The notes under the pieces: generated by a model | What the model was told of the DNA's origin: nothing | The model's database searches: none | What the model saw: the letters and a program-made list of their open reading frames with translations, nothing else | Made by a program: the position numbers and the translations under genes | In this document: one piece after another, positions 14,261-29,233 of the stretch | Layout: the number at the start of each line of letters is the position of its first letter | Position numbering within the stretch: position 1 is the first letter of the stretch | Sequence record: AP019521.1 | Strand: one strand, 5' to 3' | From: Escherichia phage KIT01 | Length of the DNA stretch: 64,000 nt

Positions 14261-14782
14261 TTAATATCCTCGGTCTTGACGAGCAAAGTTCTCGGCATTT
14301 TTCAGATAATACAACTTAAAGATTTCTTCAGCAGTCAGACCAAGGCCTTGGAACATATTCAGAACAAAGTGCAGAATATCAATCATCTCGAATTTAATCT
14401 CGAGCTGGTCTTCAGGAGACAAATCGTTAATCAGGGTTTCACGACGTTCAGCATGTTGAGCTTTCCAAGGCTTCCATACTGCAGATGCATCTTTTTCACC
14501 ATTGCTCATACCGCCAAGAGAAGTCAGAAGTTCACGGAATTCGTCATCAATATAATCTTTCTGATTACGCAGCCAATCAACAACTTCACCTGCAGTGGCC
14601 AAATCATCAGGATGACGGTTATATTCAGGTTTATCTTTAGCCAAACGGACCTGTAATGATTTCTGCATATCAAGCATAACCTGCAGAGGGTCTTTATCTT
14701 CGTGAATCAGAGCATTAAAATAAGCTTCCTCAGCTTTATCAACACCTGCAATCAGTTGAGAACATTCATTAAAATGAGCCAT
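14261..14782 (-). CDS. 56: dCTP/dCDP pyrophosphatase (MazG-like)
   Basis: start at MAHFNEC as in T4 gp56; DPLQVMLDMQ, EIFKLYYLKN..ENFARQDRGY C-terminus matches T4. Confidence 0.85.
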   Translation of the reverse strand: MAHFNECSQLIAGVDKAEEAYFNALIHEDKDPLQVMLDMQKSLQVRLAKDKPEYNRHPDDLATAGEVVDWLRNQKDYIDDEFRELLTSLGGMSNGEKDASAVWKPWKAQHAERRETLINDLSPEDQLEIKFEMIDILHFVLNMFQGLGLTAEEIFKLYYLKNAENFARQDRGY

Positions 14783-19733: not shown

Positions 19734-20047
19734 CTCTTAGATTTAATTTTATCCAGTTCTTCTTGTATTTGCATTGTAACACATTTTTCTACATGAAGCG
19801 CTAGCTCTTCTTTTCGGTCTTCGGAAGGTGTTCCGAAATCAACCGACACTTTTCCATCTTTCTCAATAACAATATTCATCACATAAACGATGTGAGCAGT
19901 GCCATCGGGTAAAGTAAGCATAATTTCCTGCTTAACAGAACCCATTGACTTACGGATTATATCTAATGATTTCTCATAATAACGAGGGTCACTAGGACCC
20001 TCTTCGGTATCTTTAACAAAATTATCTAAATCAGATAAATCAGTCAT
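19718..20047 (-). CDS. hypothetical protein at gene 40 position
   Basis: 109 aa between 41 and uvsX; assignment by synteny only. Confidence 0.4.
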   Translation of the reverse strand: MTDLSDLDNFVKDTEEGPSDPRYYEKSLDIIRKSMGSVKQEIMLTLPDGTAHIVYVMNIVIEKDGKVSVDFGTPSEDRKEELALHVEKCVTMQIQEELDKIKSKRWWKW

Positions 20048-21212
20048 CTAAATCCATCTCTTCTAAATCGTTTTCGATATCAGCGGCGCTTTGGGTATTT
20101 CCACCTAATTTAACAGCAACGTTCTTAGAGACACGAGAGTTAATAAGGTCGTTCACTGCATCGTCAACTTCTTTAATAGAATTAATTGCACCGAGCTTAT
20201 ACTTATTCTCGATTGCTTCACGGAACGGAGCATGTTTAAACAGCGGTCCCCAGAACTCAACACAATCGGTAGCTTTAGCACGCCATGCTTTTTCTTCTTG
20301 AACCATTTCACCTGTGGTTTCGTCAAGGAATGCACGATTATACCAGCCAGCTTTAGGTTTCACGACAAAGCCAATATCAGTAGCCATTTCAAGCAATCCG
20401 CTGAATGGGTCGATACCACCTTCGAAGTTAACAGTGATAGGGAACGTTGATTTCTCTTTAACCGTACGAGATTTCTCAGCCTTCAGTGTGAAGTCATAAC
20501 CAGTGAGCTCAGTACCATCTTTAACCTGACGTTTAGAGATAAAGAACACGGTAGAAGCAGAGTACAGAATACCAGTACCACCACCCATAATCTCTTTAGG
20601 ATACATTCCACCAATTTCCATAGCCGTGTGGTTAATTGCTACACAAGGGATATCTTTGATGGTCAGATAAGGTGTTACGATACGGAACAGAGATTTCAGT
20701 GACTTAGCACGAGTCATATCACCTACAACTTTCTCGTTCAAAGCATCTTCGGTTTCTTTCTTAGAAGCAGTGTTACCGATGGAGTCGATAAAGATAATAA
20801 CCTTTTCGCCACGAGTAATTTCTTCTAACTGGTTGGTCATATCAACTTTAAGCTGTTCGACTGACTGGATTGGGGTATGAACCACACGTTCCAAATCAAC
20901 ACCCATCGAACGGAAATAAGATTCTGAAGCACCAAACTCAGAGTCATAGAACAAACAAATTGCGTCTGGATATTTCTTCATATATGCCGCAACCATGGTA
21001 AGTCCAAACAACGTTTTAAAGTGTTTAGATGGAGCAGCAAAGATTGTCAAACCTGATTGTAAGCCTGCATTCAACGCACCACCTAATGCAATATTCAGCA
21101 TAGGGATACGAGTAGGAACTTCGTCACGACCATTAAACAATTTAGATTTGGTCAGGTCGGCAGTCATTTTAGAAGTAGAAGCTTTAATCAAACGGGATTT
21201 TAAATCAGACAT
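20040..21212 (-). CDS. uvsX: UvsX recombinase (RecA-like)
   Basis: 390 aa; MSDLKSRLIKASTSK...FYDSEFG... very close to T4 UvsX. Confidence 0.95.
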   Translation of the reverse strand: MSDLKSRLIKASTSKMTADLTKSKLFNGRDEVPTRIPMLNIALGGALNAGLQSGLTIFAAPSKHFKTLFGLTMVAAYMKKYPDAICLFYDSEFGASESYFRSMGVDLERVVHTPIQSVEQLKVDMTNQLEEITRGEKVIIFIDSIGNTASKKETEDALNEKVVGDMTRAKSLKSLFRIVTPYLTIKDIPCVAINHTAMEIGGMYPKEIMGGGTGILYSASTVFFISKRQVKDGTELTGYDFTLKAEKSRTVKEKSTFPITVNFEGGIDPFSGLLEMATDIGFVVKPKAGWYNRAFLDETTGEMVQEEKAWRAKATDCVEFWGPLFKHAPFREAIENKYKLGAINSIKEVDDAVNDLINSRVSKNVAVKLGGNTQSAADIENDLEEMDLDD

Positions 21213-21289: not shown

Positions 21290-22183
21290 TTAAAGGACCA
21301 CGTCCTCATAACTTGGCATTTCGTGCTCAGAATGGATATGGGCACCGAAATAAATGAATTCAGCTAGACCAGGATGGAATACTAAACCAGGATTCTCATG
21401 ATAAATGATATGAGGTCTTGATTTCAGAATCTGATAATATTCAACCTTACTCGGTTTGAATTTAATAATCTCTACATCAGGACGATAGTCTTCACGCTTA
21501 AATGAATCATTCGGATCGGTGATATAAAGGCGAGAACCTCCAGCCGCAGCTTGGTCTACAACTCTTTCGAATTGATAGCATTTATCAGAGATACGGAATG
21601 GATGGAAAATACCATCAATTTTAATAGGCGCTAGACCTTCAGAGTAACGCTCAATTACTGCCGGATTAATTACCTTTTGGTCTACAAAAATCTTATCAGA
21701 GGACGCACCTCGTGACACCAGGACGTCTTTCTGGCATTGATTCAAGACTGTAGTATAAATCGAACGTTCAACTGAAGACACGTCGATATCAATGAACTCA
21801 TCGATGTAATAACGAGGAACTTCAGGGTCCATTGTAATGTTAAAGTTGAATTGTACAGTATGAGCACCATCATAACCTGTGATATCGGTTACCAATCCTG
21901 AGCAGTCATAGTATTCGATTAACGAATCAACAACGAACTCATTTTCAGACCAAAAATGTTTACGAGTTTCATAAGCATTTTCTTTATACCAAAGCGGTAC
22001 AAAATTCAGTTCAGGAAACAATTCAATACATTCTTTGATATCGCTCGAATTTCTAGGATAAGCCAGATAATCACCTGGGCAAGCACGGTTTAAATGGAGT
22101 TGAAAATTACCGTCCTTAAGGACGGCATATTCACCTGTTTCGTAACTACGCATACTGAAAATAGGAACGATAAACAAACTCAT
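21290..22183 (-). CDS. unrecognised protein at the beta-glucosyltransferase locus (candidate hmC-modifying transferase)
   Basis: 297 aa; lies between uvsX and gene 42 where T4 has beta-gt; no similarity to T4 beta-gt detected by eye. Confidence 0.55.
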   Translation of the reverse strand: MSLFIVPIFSMRSYETGEYAVLKDGNFQLHLNRACPGDYLAYPRNSSDIKECIELFPELNFVPLWYKENAYETRKHFWSENEFVVDSLIEYYDCSGLVTDITGYDGAHTVQFNFNITMDPEVPRYYIDEFIDIDVSSVERSIYTTVLNQCQKDVLVSRGASSDKIFVDQKVINPAVIERYSEGLAPIKIDGIFHPFRISDKCYQFERVVDQAAAGGSRLYITDPNDSFKREDYRPDVEIIKFKPSKVEYYQILKSRPHIIYHENPGLVFHPGLAEFIYFGAHIHSEHEMPSYEDVVL

Positions 22184-22878
22184 TTCAGGAATCCTCGAAC
22201 GTAGTCAAAATCACGTTCAAATACATGTGCACTAACCATAGTATGGGAATACGTACCCAGACCAACACCACACTGTTCAGCAATAAAGGCCATCAGTTTA
22301 CCCTGCAGATAGAAATCCAGCTGCATAACGATAGCACAGTTCTGTGAACGCATATGGGTATGTGCATAAAGACGTCCATCACGAATATAATATGTTACCG
22401 AATCGGTGCACGGATATTCTAAGGATTCGTCAGAATCAAGGAGGGCTTGGTCTTGTTCTTGGAGAATTTGGAACACAACTCGTCTCGAGTTAGGCTTTTC
22501 TTTAAGCTCTTTAAGTAAGGCTGGGAGTTGGGCCACAATTCGAGGTCCATAGAAAGTGTTGAAGTTTGCAGGCAATACGTCACTTTTCGGCTTATCAATG
22601 AACTTAGCAACATTAGGGTATTCCTTAAATGCTTCGGCGGCATCAGTACCGCCGGAAATCATAAACTTCCAGAAAGATTCGGCATAATCATAGTTGATAC
22701 GATTAATACGAGGGTCGGTGAATTTATAGGTGCTTGCATCCAGTACTTCTACCGAAGCAGAACCAATTTCATAACAACGGCCGATACGAGAATCAACTGC
22801 AAACTGTGGAGCTTCCAGGATTTCTTCGTTCATTTGCTTAAACGCGTTTTCAAAACTAACAGCGGTAATGTGTTTCAT
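22180..22878 (-). CDS. 42: dCMP hydroxymethylase (thymidylate synthase fold)
   Basis: 232 aa; PCTDSVTYYIRDGRL...MRSQN...QLDFY aligns with T4 gp42 CTNTVQYLIRD...MRSND...RNDY; synteny. Confidence 0.8.
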   Translation of the reverse strand: MKHITAVSFENAFKQMNEEILEAPQFAVDSRIGRCYEIGSASVEVLDASTYKFTDPRINRINYDYAESFWKFMISGGTDAAEAFKEYPNVAKFIDKPKSDVLPANFNTFYGPRIVAQLPALLKELKEKPNSRRVVFQILQEQDQALLDSDESLEYPCTDSVTYYIRDGRLYAHTHMRSQNCAIVMQLDFYLQGKLMAFIAEQCGVGLGTYSHTMVSAHVFERDFDYVRGFLK

Positions 22879-23411
22879 TTATTCACCTTATTTTCAATAT
22901 ATTCATTCAGACGTTTTAATTCTACCATATCGACGTTAAGCAAGTTATTATGCCCGTCATGGTTTAAAACTTTAAAAACATTTTTAAAACAGTCTTCATA
23001 TTTTTGGATAGTTAAGTTGAATTCATCTTTAGTCAGTTTAATGAGGTCATCTTCAAAGTCTTTATCCAACGGATTACGGGTTAAAATAATCTCAATGATA
23101 TTGAATTCTTTTTTGAAATCAATCCAATCTGCTAGTTCTACATAAGGGTCCATTTCACCACGAAGGAATCCCGAGTAAACAATATTACTAGGATACCCAC
23201 GGTCTAAGATGTAGACAAAATTAGGGTCTAAAAACTTATACAACGTCTCGACTAAAGCCTTGTCATTATCAGTCCCTAATGAAATGCATTTGCCATTAAT
23301 CTTTTTAGGGAAATCAATAAGACGATATTTCTTATCAGATAAAAGTGATTCAATTAAAGTAGACTTCCCGGAATTATCCGGGCCGTCGATAACAATGATT
23401 TTTGGTTTCAC
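22875..23411 (-). CDS. P-loop nucleoside/nucleotide kinase-like protein
   Basis: 178 aa; Walker A IIVIDGPDNSGKSTL at N-terminus; small kinase fold typical of dNK/TMK-like enzymes. Confidence 0.6.
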   Translation of the reverse strand: MKPKIIVIDGPDNSGKSTLIESLLSDKKYRLIDFPKKINGKCISLGTDNDKALVETLYKFLDPNFVYILDRGYPSNIVYSGFLRGEMDPYVELADWIDFKKEFNIIEIILTRNPLDKDFEDDLIKLTKDEFNLTIQKYEDCFKNVFKVLNHDGHNNLLNVDMVELKRLNEYIENKVNK

Positions 23412-23782
23412 GGATGATATGCCTTATAGGTTTCAAGAGTTCCTTCACGAACCATTTCTTTAAAGTGGTCAGGACGGATTGCTCGGTCATCGATGATAAA
23501 AGTATAACTCGGCTTATGTGTAAGCAGATTATGATATTTCAATCCGATCTTTTCAAGGTTCTTAACCAATGCAGGAACTACTTCAACCAAGATTCGACCA
23601 GGGCCGCATGAAGTCATGCCACGGGCAGTGAACAAGGTAATCTCATGACCTTCGTCATAAAGCTTATTAATCATGGACACCATTTCGGTGTCCGGTTTAA
23701 AGTTTTCGTAATCACGGTCATCTTGCCAGTGAGTAATGGTATTATCGATATCAAAACACAGATGCATTAAATTTTCTTCCAT
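23408..23782 (-). CDS. HAD-superfamily phosphatase-like protein
   Basis: 124 aa; motif I FDIDNTI (DxDxT), later TAR and IIDD motifs; alternative start at 23767. Confidence 0.55.
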   Translation of the reverse strand: MEENLMHLCFDIDNTITHWQDDRDYENFKPDTEMVSMINKLYDEGHEITLFTARGMTSCGPGRILVEVVPALVKNLEKIGLKYHNLLTHKPSYTFIIDDRAIRPDHFKEMVREGTLETYKAYHP

Positions 23783-25440
23783 TGTTTGTGGAGTTCAGTA
23801 GAACCTGTAGGTTTATATTTTACACCAGTTTCCTGGTCAAGCAAAACCCACTTATCAGGGCAACGAGTGATAATTTGAGCCGTAATAGGGTCACGAACTT
23901 CATCGACAAATTCACCTGTAATAAGCTTACGCTTACGAGGATGCCGCTTCAGCAGCACACTCAGTTGGTATAGACCGTTGTAATAAGCACCCAGAGCTTT
24001 CAGAGGATTATTCTTAAAGTAACCTGCCAGTGCCATCCAAATAACGGCAATCCAGAGCTTGTGCTTAAATGTACACATCGGAATATCATCTAAAGGCATA
24101 ACCTTTTCAATATCAACGAATACACGAGTTCCGTTACGAGTTAATCCACCCCATAGAGGGTCAGAGTTAAATTTGTCATAGCCATCGATAGAATAAAGCA
24201 CCTTAGCTTCGTCATAAATCGCAGGGCCTTTAGAACTATTACCAAAATAACCACGTGGGTCGATGATTTTAATATCACCTTCGTCCGACAGCATAATATT
24301 ACTGTAGTGCGGGTCACCATGAATAAGTTGGTATGGTTCTTTATGTTCAGACAGAATTTCTAGTGCATGACGGAGAAGTTTTTCAGGGTCGCCTACCTTG
24401 AAGTCGTTAACATGGGTAATGCCCTGTGGAGCAAAGCCTTCAATCAATCCAGCAATAGAAGCATTACGAATAAGGACCTTGTCCAATACTTCTTTCTTAA
24501 CATCAGAATACCATTGCTCATCGGATGGGTTATCGATAGTTCCGCCGAATGAACGCAATGCACTAATGACCTTATAAACCATGAGGACTTTGGTTTCTTT
24601 AGACATAAACCGGTAGGCATCTGCCATGGTACGACCAAAGATACGTTCCATTTTAATGAATTCGCCTGGAGCAAAGTCTACAATGCTAGGAACGAATTCA
24701 GAATCAATAGAATTATACCAATTGATTTCTTTAGATTGGATTTCTTTACCTAATTCGTTGGTAGGTACTTTAATAGCCAGATTCTCAGTGAATTCTAATT
24801 TATTAAATTCACGGTTAATTTCAGAATCTTCATGGGCCTTAGCCAGTTTCAATTTGTCACCGACATCAACCACAAAGTCCAGCTTACGTTCAGTCAAATG
24901 GACCATCGAATCCAGGTTGTCTGCAAGGTCTTCGCCATAATTAGAACGGTCGAAACCTGTCCAATTAGCCACCTGATACAAACCAACCACACCACCGCCA
25001 GTACCAATTTCACGCAAGTACGGTTCTTCAAATGTAAAACGACAGTCGGTCCCATAGGTATAACAGTAGTCGTTATCCCACTCAACTTTATGACCTTCAG
25101 GAATAATATCACACCAGTTAAACAAGACATTATGCCCGATGATATCTTCGGCAATGCAATCGATAGCATGAGCTGAACCATTGGCCACATCTACGTTACG
25201 GATAGTGAATTTAGGCTTATCACTGGTAATCATGTTAATGGATTTAATATAGCCTTTAACGAGGTCGTTAAATTTGCTGTGAATAACCAGAATAATTTCA
25301 TCTGATTGGTTACTATACAAATCATACAAATGTTTTAATACGGTATGTTGTTTGTAGTTAACCAATACCTTCGGGATTTCGTTAGTAATTGGATACAACC
25401 GTGAGCCAAGACCCGCGCCTAAAATAACAACCTTTTTCAT
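23767..25440 (-). CDS. bifunctional sugar-1-phosphate nucleotidyltransferase / APH-choline-kinase-like sugar kinase
   Basis: start set at MKKVV after GAGGAA SD; N-terminus VVILGAGLGSRLYPIT..IPKVLV = RmlA/GlmU signature; C-terminal HGDPHYSNIML...IIDPRGYFG = Brenner kinase motif. Confidence 0.7.
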   Translation of the reverse strand: MKKVVILGAGLGSRLYPITNEIPKVLVNYKQHTVLKHLYDLYSNQSDEIILVIHSKFNDLVKGYIKSINMITSDKPKFTIRNVDVANGSAHAIDCIAEDIIGHNVLFNWCDIIPEGHKVEWDNDYCYTYGTDCRFTFEEPYLREIGTGGGVVGLYQVANWTGFDRSNYGEDLADNLDSMVHLTERKLDFVVDVGDKLKLAKAHEDSEINREFNKLEFTENLAIKVPTNELGKEIQSKEINWYNSIDSEFVPSIVDFAPGEFIKMERIFGRTMADAYRFMSKETKVLMVYKVISALRSFGGTIDNPSDEQWYSDVKKEVLDKVLIRNASIAGLIEGFAPQGITHVNDFKVGDPEKLLRHALEILSEHKEPYQLIHGDPHYSNIMLSDEGDIKIIDPRGYFGNSSKGPAIYDEAKVLYSIDGYDKFNSDPLWGGLTRNGTRVFVDIEKVMPLDDIPMCTFKHKLWIAVIWMALAGYFKNNPLKALGAYYNGLYQLSVLLKRHPRKRKLITGEFVDEVRDPITAQIITRCPDKWVLLDQETGVKYKPTGSTELHKQWKKI

Positions 25441-25500
25441 TATCTGTTCCTCAAGTGAATGTAGGTACATTATACACTATTTTTAATAAATTGGTATTGC

Positions 25501-26001
25501 TTAAATCTTATCTTTACCGATTTCAATACACTGTTCTATTGCCGCCGGTACTTTGGTCTTGAGCTTATCGATTTGTTTCTTATAATCACGAGCTTTACCG
25601 AAGCTCTCGGTTTCGAGCATTTCGTAATAACGAGCCTCATGGATAGAAATCTGTAGATTGATATGGTTTACACACATCGCATACAGTTTCTGCTTTTTGT
25701 ACAAATCATCTTGGCGCTTCATTTCTGCCTGGTGTTTGGCTAGTACCGCTTCACGCTTGGACTCTTGTTCACGTTGGAATTCGATTTCCCTTTGAGCATA
25801 TTTTGCACAGTTATTACCGCATTGATTATTAGCTCGGGTATACACAAGTCCAGAACCAGCACGGAATTTCATTTCGCCATCGAATTGTTTCTGTTCAGCT
25901 GCGATACGAGCTTTACCAACTTCATCGGTCGAAACTGCATCACCATATTGGACCGCGCAACCTGATAGGAGCATACTCATTGCGATAATTAACTTTTTCA
26001 T
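25501..26001 (-). CDS. predicted lipoprotein
   Basis: 166 aa; signal peptide with lipobox LSGC; charged coiled region. Confidence 0.5.
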   Translation of the reverse strand: MKKLIIAMSMLLSGCAVQYGDAVSTDEVGKARIAAEQKQFDGEMKFRAGSGLVYTRANNQCGNNCAKYAQREIEFQREQESKREAVLAKHQAEMKRQDDLYKKQKLYAMCVNHINLQISIHEARYYEMLETESFGKARDYKKQIDKLKTKVPAAIEQCIEIGKDKI

Positions 26002-26008
26002 AATATCC

Positions 26009-26146
26009 TCAATTAAAACAGTTATACTTAATTTGTGCTATAAGAATAATCCATCCAATGATGAGTGTCGGAATCATTGGCGGAATTGCCACTGCCCAAT
26101 AAATGGTAAAGGCAGTCATTATAAGAAATAAAATAATTATTTTCAT
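26009..26146 (-). CDS. small hydrophobic protein (45 aa)
   Basis: read manually: MKIIILFLIMTAFTIYWAV...; ATGA overlap with stop of upstream gene. Confidence 0.3.
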   Translation of the reverse strand: MKIIILFLIMTAFTIYWAVAIPPMIPTLIIGWIILIAQIKYNCFN

Positions 26147-26441: not shown

Positions 26442-29153
26442 TTAAAAGTCGAACATATCAAATAATGTTGCTTTTTTCTCGTAGTCGATTTTAGCAGATT
26501 CAGTAAAACCAGTCAGAGGTTTGATAAAGGTCTTTTGGAACAGTACGTTGTAGTCCATCCAACGGAGGACCTGGTCACGAATCTGAACCGGAAGTTCAAT
26601 ACCCGACGGCCATGCCATACAAGCTTCACCAAACGGGTTGCCTTCTTTAAGCGGCAGCACATATACCTTTTCACCATCAACGATACGAGGCATAGTCAAA
26701 TCACCTGCAGAAGCACGCATGTAAGCTAAGCAACCTTTGATGTGGTATGGACATTTAGAGCCAGGGAATCCACCTTCATTATATTTCTCGATGTTGTTAG
26801 CACTGGATACTGCTGCAATGCTTACATAGTTGAGTTCGTTAAATTCCTTATTAAACTGTTTGAAATATTCTTGCAAAGATGCCTCGCCTTCCTGAAGCAT
26901 ACGACGGATACATTCCTTCAGAGCTTTCTGAACTGCTTTAGGTGTACTTGATTTCTGAGTTTCAAGACCCATGATTTTCAAGTGTGGTTCGGCATAACGA
27001 GTACCTTCCATGTCCCAAACGTTAAGTGCATAACGTTTCTTGCCTGTCCAGAATCCACCAAGACCTTTAGAACCAAGTGGAGGACCAGCGATAGCTTCTC
27101 GGTCCATGAACATCAAGTGCTGTTTGTTGTTCATATACTCGCACATCTCACGGAAGCCTGCATCAATAGCAGGTTCCATACGTTCACGTGCAAATTTATC
27201 TAAGAAGTCGACCCAGTGGTTAGTATCACGGAATTTATCTTCGCCTACTTTATTGATGATTGCATCCGCCTTAACATAAATGGAGTCAGTATCACCATAG
27301 AGCACGAACTTCTGATTTTCAGTCTTACACACGCTATTCAGATATTCGTTAACCTTACGTTCAATCCATTGGAGGGCCATTTGACCAAACAGTGTGATTG
27401 CAGTTGCGTTCCTGAGGTCATAGTAACGGAACCATACGTTACCAAGTGCACCATAAAGGGAGTTGATAAGCAACTTACGGTTAATCTGAGCAGTGTTACC
27501 TGCAACTTCAGTGAGCTCGGCTTTCTTCAACATTTCTCTTAAAGAAGGCGCTGACAGTGCTTTAATCTGGGCTTTGATTTCGTCAGAGAAGTCAAAACGA
27601 TAATCGATATCCAGTGGACTATCAACTGAGAGATTAGGATTTTCCAATGCTTCTTTAATTAACTCACCATTACGTTGAGCTGCAAGCATGTAACCTTTAT
27701 GTTCTTTACGCTGCAAGAATACCTTGGTGATTTCTGTCGGAATCACACCTTCACGGTCTTTATAATACATCATGCCGTTAGGAGAGCAACTGTAGACGTC
27801 GCTAGGACGCGGAGCTGTTCCGGCAATATATTCATGTATCGGTGCGTTAGCGAATGTCCCTGCGATGGTCTCTGGGCTTATATTCACTTGTCGAATGATA
27901 CTCGGGTACAGAGATGTAAGGTCGAAACTCATTACATATTTGTAAGCGTTAGGAATCGGTTCCTTAACGAAAGCACCAGGATAAGGTTGGACCACGTGTG
28001 AACGAGCTTGTGGAATTACCTTGCCTTGTTCTTTAAGACTATTAAAGATAATAGCGTCCCAAGTCTTAATTGGACTGAACACCGACTGAATCTGCATCTT
28101 GGCATAATAACCCATGTCCAAACTCAGAAGAATGAACTGGCGTTTCATATCAATCTGCACTACACGATATACGTCGATAATGTTATAGGAAATATATCGT
28201 TGGTGGTTCGTCTCACGTAACTTAGAGATCGGACCATCATATTTCAACTTACCTACTTTCAATTCATATTCAGAAACATAATCCAGAGAATAAGAAGGCT
28301 GGTTGGTGAAGCTGAATTTTTTATAAAGGTCGATATAATCTAGAACAGAGATACCGAACAAAGTAATGATTTCACGAGCACCGTACATGTTCTCGATAAC
28401 TTTAACACGAGTTTTACGATGCGGGCTTAATCGCTTAGCAGTGTTCTCACCGAACAGATTTTTCAGACGGTTATAAACGTACGGCACGTCAAACGACTCA
28501 ACGTTCCATCCAGTCAAAATCACAGGGGTTTTCTGTTGCCAGAAATTCAAGTACTCAAGCATCATTTCTTCTTCGGAATTAAACGGAAGATAAACGATTT
28601 TGTCAATGATTTCCTGTGGAACTTCGTCACCACCTTCTTCTTGGAGTTTCTCAGCGATTTTAATCGACCACTCTTCAACAGTACCATAAGGCGAAACTAA
28701 AAGGTCGAATACATAGAATTTATCGTCAATCGAGTCGTAGTGGGTAATGGCATCGATAGGATGTTTGGCCTGAGCTGGTTCAGGGAATCCATCAGGAGAT
28801 GTTACCTCGATGTCGAAGTTAGCAATACGAATCTTAGAAGAATCATATTTGATTTCTTTACGATAGGTATCAGACAAATAGGCTAATTTATAGTCGTCCA
28901 TACCCAGGGCTTCGAGACCCATATCGTCCATACGTTTCATCCATTGGGATGCATCACGCATAGAATCGAATTCTTTCTTAACACAACCCTTACCATAGAT
29001 ATCAATGTATTTTACGGCTTGCTCTGGATTAGCATGCATAAACATTGTAGGCTTGTATGGAACTTCACGACTACGTTCGTTACCATTTTTATCGATGTAA
29101 CGTTCGAGAATATTATCACCGATTTGTTCGACTGTCAAATAGAATTCTTGCAT
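26442..29153 (-). CDS. 43: DNA polymerase (family B)
   Basis: start set at MQEFYLTVEQIG matching T4 MKEFYISIETVG; exonuclease motifs, YGDTDS, C-terminal clamp-binding tail. Confidence 0.95.
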   Translation of the reverse strand: MQEFYLTVEQIGDNILERYIDKNGNERSREVPYKPTMFMHANPEQAVKYIDIYGKGCVKKEFDSMRDASQWMKRMDDMGLEALGMDDYKLAYLSDTYRKEIKYDSSKIRIANFDIEVTSPDGFPEPAQAKHPIDAITHYDSIDDKFYVFDLLVSPYGTVEEWSIKIAEKLQEEGGDEVPQEIIDKIVYLPFNSEEEMMLEYLNFWQQKTPVILTGWNVESFDVPYVYNRLKNLFGENTAKRLSPHRKTRVKVIENMYGAREIITLFGISVLDYIDLYKKFSFTNQPSYSLDYVSEYELKVGKLKYDGPISKLRETNHQRYISYNIIDVYRVVQIDMKRQFILLSLDMGYYAKMQIQSVFSPIKTWDAIIFNSLKEQGKVIPQARSHVVQPYPGAFVKEPIPNAYKYVMSFDLTSLYPSIIRQVNISPETIAGTFANAPIHEYIAGTAPRPSDVYSCSPNGMMYYKDREGVIPTEITKVFLQRKEHKGYMLAAQRNGELIKEALENPNLSVDSPLDIDYRFDFSDEIKAQIKALSAPSLREMLKKAELTEVAGNTAQINRKLLINSLYGALGNVWFRYYDLRNATAITLFGQMALQWIERKVNEYLNSVCKTENQKFVLYGDTDSIYVKADAIINKVGEDKFRDTNHWVDFLDKFARERMEPAIDAGFREMCEYMNNKQHLMFMDREAIAGPPLGSKGLGGFWTGKKRYALNVWDMEGTRYAEPHLKIMGLETQKSSTPKAVQKALKECIRRMLQEGEASLQEYFKQFNKEFNELNYVSIAAVSSANNIEKYNEGGFPGSKCPYHIKGCLAYMRASAGDLTMPRIVDGEKVYVLPLKEGNPFGEACMAWPSGIELPVQIRDQVLRWMDYNVLFQKTFIKPLTGFTESAKIDYEKKATLFDMFDF

Positions 29154-29208
29154 TTCATTTCCTTTATAGACGAGTGATTGTCTTTTGTTTGTTGATGAAT
29201 CATTATAC

Positions 29209-29233
29209 TCCAAAAGGGACCGAAGTCCCTTTG
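29209..29233 (-). terminator. UUCG hairpin between regA-downstream ORF and gene 43
   Basis: minus GGGAC-UUCG-GUCCC followed by UUUU; may also act as gene 43 leader structure. Confidence 0.45.

Follow-up and report, generated by a model that had tools for sequence, protein, structure and literature searches.

A probable Dhakavirus form of the arabinosyl-5-hydroxycytosine pathway in Escherichia phage KIT01, with a thymidylate-kinase-like protein most likely acting on modified dCMP

The window analyzed here is a stretch of 64,000 nucleotides of Escherichia phage KIT01 (sequence record AP019521.1), and its subject is a pair of small open reading frames (ORFs) encoding a P-loop kinase and a HAD-superfamily phosphatase. 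The initial annotation had placed the two ORFs at 22875-23782, next to a "gene 42" hydroxymethylase, with overlaps of 4 to 16 nt, and both were confirmed on the minus strand at these positions. They are the third and second genes of a block of five translationally coupled minus-strand genes, which probably represents the Dhakavirus form of the published arabinosyl-5-hydroxycytosine pathway, with the kinase acting on modified deoxycytidine monophosphate (dCMP). The features concerned are the following.

21290..22183, minus strand: glycosyltransferase, 297 residues
22180..22878, minus strand: thymidylate synthase (TS) homolog, the "gene 42" of the initial annotation, 232 residues
22875..23411, minus strand: P-loop kinase, 178 residues, GTG start, MKPKIIVIDGPDNSGKST
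23408..23782, minus strand: HAD-superfamily phosphatase, 124 residues, ...CFDIDNTI...
23767..25440, minus strand: AfhE-like bifunctional enzyme, 557 residues from ATG 25440
20040-21212: uvsX, one flank of the modification block
26442-29213: DNA polymerase, the other flank of the modification block
14261..14782, minus strand: dCTPase (T4 gp56 homolog), 89% identical to the HY126 dCTP pyrophosphatase (tblastn)

In the order of transcription, the block consists of the AfhE-like gene, the HAD phosphatase gene, the P-loop kinase gene, the gene of the predicted 5-hydroxy-dCMP synthase (the TS homolog) and the glycosyltransferase gene. Read from the sequence, the ATG of the TS homolog overlapped the TGA stop of the kinase gene by 4 nt (ATGA, 22875-22878), the GTG start of the kinase overlapped the TGA stop of the HAD gene by 4 nt (GTGA, 23408-23411), and the HAD ATG at 23782 lay 16 nt within the upstream AfhE-like gene, whose TAA stop is at 23767-23769, in agreement with the annotated range. 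The TS homolog and the downstream glycosyltransferase also overlapped by 4 nt (22180-22183). An alternative HAD start, the second ATG at 23767, is used in the RefSeq record of phage WG01 and would give an overlap of 1 nt; the longer N-terminus from 23782 could be aligned with HY126 AfhF. The upstream ORF as delimited mechanically (23767-25470) has 567 residues, but it is ATG 25440, giving 557 residues, that carries a GAGGA Shine-Dalgarno sequence. The AfhE-like homologs and the PHROG 4098 profile also began to align at this ATG (residue 11 of the 567-residue ORF), which is the true start of the gene. ATG 25470 falls within a TATAAT-like hexamer (gtgTATAATG), possibly the -10 element of a promoter serving all five genes; in a promoter scan, sites were no commoner than chance. 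No minus-strand terminator-like site was found inside the block, which is therefore compatible with a single transcription unit, although this is not proof of one.

Homologs of the kinase, the HAD protein and the glycosyltransferase were present in 343, 390 and 356 phage records, respectively, with E-values down to 1e-111, so that the three are not chance ORFs. The 4.2-kb block was 96-97% identical to those of Escherichia phages 04086, WG01, Bp7 and QL01. WG01 is classified in the genus Dhakavirus, and the window comes from a Dhakavirus-type T4-like phage.

The DNA of phage RB69 was earlier taken to contain arabosyl-hydroxymethylcytosine (PMC6024577) and actually has arabinosyl-5-hydroxycytosine (Lee et al., NAR 2026, PMC13326640). 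In that work, 5-hydroxy-dCMP is formed by a TS homolog with flavin and O2. In the same paper, a bifunctional kinase/pyrophosphorylase (HY126 AfhE) and the HAD phosphatase AfhF turn arabinose-5-phosphate into UDP-arabinofuranose; AfhF is a Mg-dependent enzyme for which conversion of arabinofuranose-1,5-bisphosphate to arabinofuranose-1-phosphate is reported with the HY126 protein (summarized there from He et al. 2026). The equivalent clusters are the Afh (arabinofuranosyl-5-hydroxycytosine) cluster of HY126 (He et al., Nat Chem Biol 2026), RB69 gp45-gp55 and DLP3 gp76-gp83 (PMC13326640), and Dhakaviruses are among the genera named as bearing a syntenic cluster (PMC13326640). The pathway has already been described (2025-2026), Dhakaviruses included. 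Identity to the HY126 cluster was 43% for the AfhE-like protein, 63% for the HAD protein, 37% for the kinase, 79% for the TS homolog and 66% for the glycosyltransferase, and all five proteins also matched the LC53 cluster. The initial proposal was right in that the two small enzymes are tightly coupled to a TS-family nucleotide-modifying enzyme and serve DNA modification. Homology, diagnostic residues, fold and synteny were computed in this study, and what AfhE, AfhF and the hydroxylase do is taken from the literature; the substrate of the kinase, the host as source of arabinose-5-phosphate and the mono-arabosylation of the DNA are inferred.

The description of "gene 42" as a hydroxymethylase has to be corrected. 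Alignment of the TS homolog (...YPCTD...HMRSQNCAIVMQLD) with the phage's own td thymidylate synthase (...PPCHC...YQRSVDVFLGLPFN) showed that the catalytic Cys was kept and that the protein contained D169N and N177D; the Asp169 of T4 gp42-type enzymes was absent, position 169 being Asn. D169N (E. coli ThyA numbering, with Cys146 retained) is the diagnostic residue of 5-hydroxy-dCMP synthases (Lee et al., PMC13326640). The TS homolog matched the HY126 enzyme structures (PDB 9iqu/9iqc) with an E-value of 1.5e-125, whereas the match to T4 gp42 (PDB 1b49) reached only 4.7e-6. Owing to D169N, N177D and a match to the HY126 structures far above that to T4 gp42, "gene 42" is predicted to encode a flavin-type 5-hydroxy-dCMP synthase, a hydroxylase and not a hydroxymethylase. 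Among the TS homologs linked to the kinase, N177D, which marks cytosine specificity, was found in every one examined, while D169N was confined to the glycosyl-5-hydroxycytosine phages.

The 63% identity of the HAD protein to HY126 AfhF extended over 122 residues (E 4e-65). The protein also matched the structure of HY126 AfhF (PDB 9iqw, E 3.8e-54), PDB 1xpj (E 1e-11) and PHROG 1238 (E 6e-42), and scored 52 bits against the TIGR01689 capsule biosynthesis phosphatases, under the 162-bit cutoff. HAD motifs I-IV were complete, with D11-I-D13-N-T15, T52 (FTARG), K90 (THKP) and D98-D99 (IIDDRA), and aligned with those of 9iqw and 1xpj. The gene lies directly 3' of the AfhE-like gene, an order common to HY126, LC53 and Thanatos-1; a small extra ORF stood between the two in contigs L009 and L011. 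The HAD protein is assigned as the ortholog of HY126 AfhF, RB69 gp51 and DLP3 gp81, and is predicted to be an arabinofuranose-1,5-bisphosphate 5-phosphatase. The trimming of a phosphorylated sugar intermediate, which had been suggested initially, holds for this AfhF ortholog. Like the GmhB-type (D-glycero-D-manno-heptose-1,7-bisphosphate 7-phosphatase) and TIGR01689 EcbF/BcbF phosphatases, it is small and capless and would remove the distal phosphate of a sugar 1,n-bisphosphate before nucleotidyl transfer. Its sequence match was weak, at the 52 bits given above, and its substrate would differ in being a pentofuranose 1,5-bisphosphate.

In the AfhE-like protein, two Pfam domains were detected, NTP_transferase at residues 13-110 (E 3e-8) and APH at residues 356-427 (E 1.3e-5). 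The alignment with HY126 AfhE was full length (576 columns, E 5e-144), and PHROG 4098 was matched with an E-value of 3e-269. The protein would combine an N-terminal sugar-1-phosphate nucleotidylyltransferase with a C-terminal APH/choline-kinase-like kinase, and is predicted to act as arabinose-5-phosphate 1-kinase and UDP-arabinofuranose pyrophosphorylase. The kinase partner of the HAD phosphatase is this APH-like C-terminal domain, not the P-loop protein.

AfhF-like HAD genes with 31-36% identity also occurred in cyanophages (27 Synechococcus phage records), the matches including Synechococcus phages S-T4 and S-CAM1 and marine virus AG-345-D19. The S-CAM1 gene adjoins a "putative nucleotidyltransferase" and a "putative carbohydrate kinase", which suggests a related sugar-nucleotide pathway in cyanophages without the gp45-type kinase.

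The glycosyltransferase was 66% identical to HY126 XAN60474, 63% to the LC53 protein and 51% to Thanatos TH1_063, and 24% to gp215 of Rhizobium phage RL38J1 (E 3e-10). It matched PHROG 3891 with an E-value of 2e-158, and a Pfam search gave no match. Its homologs RB69 gp46:47 and DLP3 gp79 are the "arabinosyltransferase 1" for which attachment of the base-proximal sugar is proposed (PMC13326640).

The proposed route combines a sugar branch and a base branch. With its C-terminal kinase domain, the AfhE-like protein would phosphorylate C1 of arabinose-5-phosphate, the HAD protein would then strip the 5-phosphate, and the N-terminal nucleotidylyltransferase domain of AfhE would yield UDP-arabinofuranose, the donor for the glycosyltransferase. 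In the base branch, the phage dCTPase, an upstream component outside the operon, would convert dCTP to dCMP and keep dCTP out of the pool, the TS homolog would convert dCMP to 5-hydroxy-dCMP, and the P-loop kinase would convert 5-hydroxy-dCMP to the diphosphate for polymerization, alongside the canonical gene 1 deoxynucleoside monophosphate (dNMP) kinase.

Several components of the relatives were sought with HY126 and LC53 proteins and RB69 gp3 as queries. In the window and in positions 55,000-169,936 of WG01, tblastn detected no arabinose-5-phosphate isomerase, U32-peptidase-like gene, chorismate-mutase-like gene or second (RB69 gp3-type) arabinosyltransferase. The Dhakavirus cluster is a minimal five-gene version. 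Since a phage isomerase was not found, arabinose-5-phosphate is probably supplied by the host; E. coli KdsD and GutQ make this compound for Kdo synthesis. Since just one glycosyltransferase was found, a single arabinose is probably added to the DNA (mono-arabosylation).

Extra genes were located between AfhF and the glycosyltransferase in LC53 (L003:4894-6404) and in the metagenomic T4-like contigs L011 (3291-7123) and L012 (38-3852). They encode U32-peptidase-like and chorismate mutase (CM_2) proteins, and in L011 and L012 also a full homolog of 5-enolpyruvylshikimate-3-phosphate (EPSP) synthase (Pfam E 1.8e-113); all three types were absent from the window. The U32-family proteins TrhP and RlhA are prephenate-dependent pyrimidine C5 hydroxylases of tRNA and rRNA. 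The extra genes might allow hydroxylation without O2, or might serve to modify the sugar further.

The homologs of the P-loop kinase included RB69 ORF045c (gp45), DLP3 gp78, LC53 UYM28688 and Thanatos TH1_064, with identities of 37% to the RB69 protein, as to that of HY126, and 42% to that of LC53. RB69 gp45 and DLP3 gp78 are listed just as "nucleotide kinase" on structural grounds (Lee et al., PMC13326640). When 1.84 billion cluster representatives were scanned exhaustively with HMMER, 63 matched the family. In an alignment of 34 sequences, G10, D12, G15, K16, D70, R71, N76 and D121 were invariant, and both these residues and full-length similarity place the window kinase in the RB69 gp45-type family. 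The family profile matched B. subtilis YorR (1e-9) and many thymidylate kinases (TMPKs; 1e-7 to 1e-5) in alignments spanning the P-loop through the DR motif. The AlphaFold model (pLDDT, predicted local distance difference test, 89.8) had dTMP kinases as its best structural matches, and the matches to viral structures were concordant. The kinase has the TMPK fold, an acidic residue in the P-loop and the acceptor-phosphate motif DR(Y/H), and we take D12 and D70-R71 to match the positions at which, in established TMPK structures, the dNMP is contacted through its 3'-OH and its phosphate. Like TMPKs (PF02223) and YorR (PDB 2axp/3kb2), the kinase has a GxDxxGK(S/T) P-loop with an acidic residue and DR followed by S-x-x-x-Y; unlike them, it has a short LID region, and it is only 13-19% identical to them. 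As to the LID arginines, only R112 was conserved after strand 4 in the 34-sequence alignment. Its genomic partner, in contrast to that of TMPKs, is a cytosine-specific TS homolog, so that the expected substrate is modified dCMP rather than dTMP.

The P-loop protein would accordingly be described as thymidylate-kinase-like and not as a plain ortholog. The initial annotation had left its class to be settled by profile comparison, which pointed to thymidylate kinases; the comparison it proposed with the T4 gene 1 dNMP kinase (gp1) gave insufficient similarity in both sequence and structure. It had also reasoned that a plain thymidylate or dNMP kinase together with a generic nucleotidase would speak against a role in modification. 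The kinase came near to this in being thymidylate-kinase-like, whereas the HAD protein is no generic nucleotidase but is specifically linked to modification. Of the two alternatives offered for the two enzymes together, sugar-phosphate trimming and a separate nucleotide-pool step, each is probably true for one enzyme, the former for the HAD protein and the latter for the kinase.

Some metagenomic relatives of the kinase had additional C-terminal domains. An HhH-GPD-like domain was found in P0037, P0041, P0043, P0047, P0060 and P0070, a domain like uracil-DNA glycosylase (UDG) in P0068, P0108 and P0121, and a cytosine-specific TS domain in the fusion P0058. The gene of P0121 (L020:7001-8819) is immediately followed by those of a TS homolog, a dCMP deaminase and PolA. 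The fusions P0058 and P0037 gave no match when viral contigs were scanned with them.

Within the Straboviridae, the kinase, the HAD protein and the glycosyltransferase were found in the same genera in equal counts (Escherichia 176, Acinetobacter 57, Shigella 15, Enterobacter 9, Proteus 7, and others). The kinase gene was not adjacent to the HAD gene in HY126, RB69, LC53, Thanatos-1 and two metagenomic T4-like contigs; in these six it followed the TS homolog and the glycosyltransferase and stood directly before uvsX or one gene apart from it. The TS and glycosyltransferase genes separated the HAD gene from the kinase gene in HY126, RB69, LC53 and Thanatos-1, with further genes in between in the first three, and the adjacency of kinase and HAD genes is specific to this genus. 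The order TS, glycosyltransferase, kinase was kept in HY126, LC53, Thanatos-1 and RL38J1. The last of these, a member of the Pootjesviridae, puts galactose and glucose, not arabinose, on 5-hydroxycytosine, and encodes the TS homolog gp216, the glycosyltransferase gp215, the kinase gp214 and a separate gene 1-type kinase. In two unrelated PolA-type phage contigs, the kinase was accompanied by a dUTPase/dCTPase-like gene, a cytosine-specific TS homolog and a dCMP deaminase, and sugar genes were absent. The kinase adjoined cytosine-specific TS homologs in the examined Straboviridae genomes and metagenomic contigs, except for the uninformative L018 and L019; the neighborhoods of the distant relatives P0099 and P0098 were also uninformative. 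Because the kinase adjoins such TS homologs whatever sugar is used, it most likely phosphorylates modified (5-hydroxy-)dCMP.

The initial annotation had treated the P-loop kinase and the HAD phosphatase as a pair, a view that did not survive: the partner of the HAD protein is the AfhE C-terminal domain, and the kinase has a TMPK fold and follows the TS homolog into lineages that use other sugars or none. That the two act as a functional pair on the same phosphorylated sugar or small-molecule intermediate is very improbable, although in this genus their genes adjoin and share 4 nt, and although among the Straboviridae neither is found in a genome without the other, the counts of records per genus being identical. 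The separation of the genes in HY126, RB69, LC53 and Thanatos-1 argues against it, as does the assignment of the sugar kinase activity to the AfhE C-terminal domain in PMC13326640. The thymidylate-kinase fold and the dNMP-binding DR motif of the P-loop protein point the same way; the kinase occurs with TS homologs where HAD and sugar genes are absent, and HAD homologs were in 27 Synechococcus phage records, Synechococcus not being among the ten genera listed for the kinase. Synteny and fold have largely refuted such a pair. It is also quite unlikely that the P-loop protein is just a kinase for dTMP or for nucleotide salvage in general, not specifically connected with the modification. Databases annotate the protein as "thymidylate kinase" and dTMP kinases are its best structural matches, but the family is tiny, with its 63 representatives, and the protein is below the curated TMPK thresholds of Pfam and NCBIfam. 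It stands beside cytosine-specific TS homologs outside the two uninformative contigs, its Straboviridae counts per genus equal those of the glycosyltransferase and the HAD protein, and dTMP is already covered by gene 1 in T4-type phages. A DNA-base kinase of the 5-hydroxymethyluridine DNA kinase (5-HMUDK) type, which would phosphorylate the 5-hydroxyl of 5-hydroxycytosine (5hoC) in DNA, was rejected as highly unlikely. Genes for 5-HMUDK likewise associate with TS-family genes (PMC5889632), and several of the window kinase's relatives carry a fused domain of glycosylase fold, HhH-GPD-like or UDG-like, as in SP10 gp186 (kinase plus aGPT-PPlase). The similarity to M6 gp54, however, did not extend beyond the P-loop (31 residues by BLASTP, 30 columns by hhalign), and tblastn with the kinase and a fusion relative gave no ViI-, M6-, SP10- or W-14-type phage among the matches listed. 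Profile and structure searches indicated nucleotide (dTMP) kinases instead, and a phosphorylated base is not needed in the known pathway because the glycosyltransferase uses UDP-arabinofuranose.

An unlikely possibility is that the P-loop kinase acts on already glycosylated arabinosyl-5-hydroxy-dCMP, the first sugar being placed on the free mononucleotide before replication. A dedicated kinase would then be needed since the gene 1 kinase could not take the bulky substrate, and the polymerase would build in a dCTP analogue that already bears a sugar. The adjacency and shared order of the TS, first glycosyltransferase and kinase genes in HY126, LC53, Thanatos-1 and RL38J1 favor this, as does the presence of a gene 1-type dNMP kinase in both Straboviridae and Pootjesviridae. 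In vitro, 5-hydroxy-dCMP is already phosphorylated to the diphosphate by the gene 1 homolog of RB69, gp159 (PMC13326640), so that no task is evident for the extra kinase. Single glycosyltransferases were not seen to arabinosylate DNA that contained 5hoC, and Lee et al. cannot tell whether the first arabinosylation takes place on the mononucleotide or on DNA (PMC13326640). If true, the mechanism would explain both this failure on DNA in vitro and why TS, glycosyltransferase and kinase travel together despite gene 1. On the other side, the PolA-type contigs have the kinase and the TS homolog with no recognizable glycosyltransferase, the precedent of T4 is glycosylation after replication, and the window has its kinase gene ahead of the TS homolog instead of after the glycosyltransferase. 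According to PMC13216743, deletion of the arabinosyltransferase Aat in Bas46 by Mahler et al. still yielded phage, so that the polymerase can use a nucleotide without at least the Aat sugar.

Phosphorylation of 5-hydroxy-dCMP remains the favored activity of the kinase, and the following points weigh against it. RB69 gp159 already handles this substrate and WG01 also has gene 1 (72.3-73.1 kb, outside the window), so that a second kinase seems redundant unless substrate, timing or efficiency differs. The scores of the kinase were under the curated TMPK thresholds (15.3 bits against 27 for Pfam PF02223, 19.3 against 83 for TIGR00041). In the profile alignment, it was unaligned with the TMPK segment that holds the thymine-stacking Phe and the Arg. 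The kinase of RL38J1 is related only distantly (hhalign 90.7%, 88 columns), which makes the cross-family synteny weaker for the kinase than for the glycosyltransferase. A chemical analysis of Dhakavirus DNA was not found in the literature, nor was a test of the kinase substrate in the literature searched, He et al. 2026 and Mahler et al. 2025, which may define the substrate, being beyond reach. This TMPK-like kinase is conserved beside cytosine-modifying TS homologs in several phage lineages.

Compared with the HY126, RB69 and DLP3 clusters, the block is alike in its location between polymerase and uvsX, in the order AfhE then AfhF, in the D169N TS homolog and in having one base-proximal glycosyltransferase; in these phages, as in the window phage, a dCTPase and a separate gene 1 kinase are encoded elsewhere in the genome. 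It differs in that the kinase gene stands between AfhF and the TS homolog, whereas theirs follows the glycosyltransferase, and in that it lacks an isomerase, a U32-peptidase-like gene and a second arabinosyltransferase of the RB69 gp3 type. The T4 module of genes 42, 1 and 56 follows the same logic, in which dCTP is destroyed, dCMP is modified by a TS-family enzyme, re-phosphorylated and polymerized, and the DNA is glycosylated. T4 gp42 hydroxymethylates, whereas the window TS homolog would hydroxylate with flavin and O2, as in the literature; the sugar donor would be phage-made UDP-arabinofuranose instead of host UDP-glucose, and besides gene 1 the window phage has an extra TMPK-like kinase.

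Phage-therapy collections commonly include Dhakavirus coliphages, whose DNA almost certainly contains arabinosyl-5-hydroxycytosine and not the hydroxymethylcytosine to which their "gene 42 / dCMP hydroxymethylase" annotation points, and this corrected base identity bears on the predicted sensitivity to restriction, CRISPR and type IV systems. The five-gene cluster without an isomerase offers a compact natural "minimal set" for reconstitution of the pathway. In the WG01 RefSeq record, the block carries the labels "thymidylate synthase", "thymidylate kinase" and "phosphoheptose isomerase", with the flanking proteins left hypothetical; the last of these labels, given to the AfhF-type phosphatase, is wrong. 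Other public labels were also misleading, among them "thymidylate kinase" for the kinase; some records name the glycosyltransferase "RNA polymerase binding protein", the hydroxylase goes under "dCMP hydroxymethylase" or "thymidylate synthase", and the label is wrong as well for the 5-hydroxymethyldeoxyuridine DNA kinase gp54 of phage M6, entered as "terminase small subunit" (L004:16686-17249).

Two small minus-strand ORFs lie between imm and the modification block, and PHROG 1754 was given for the pair. One, at 25501-26001 of the window, encodes a 166-residue protein with a lipoprotein-type signal (MKKLIIAMSMLLSGC) that was 29% identical (E 4e-21) to a "signal peptide" protein at the same position in LC53. 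The other, at 26009-26146, encodes a 45-residue membrane protein matching a 47-residue HY126 ORF located after the isomerase gene.

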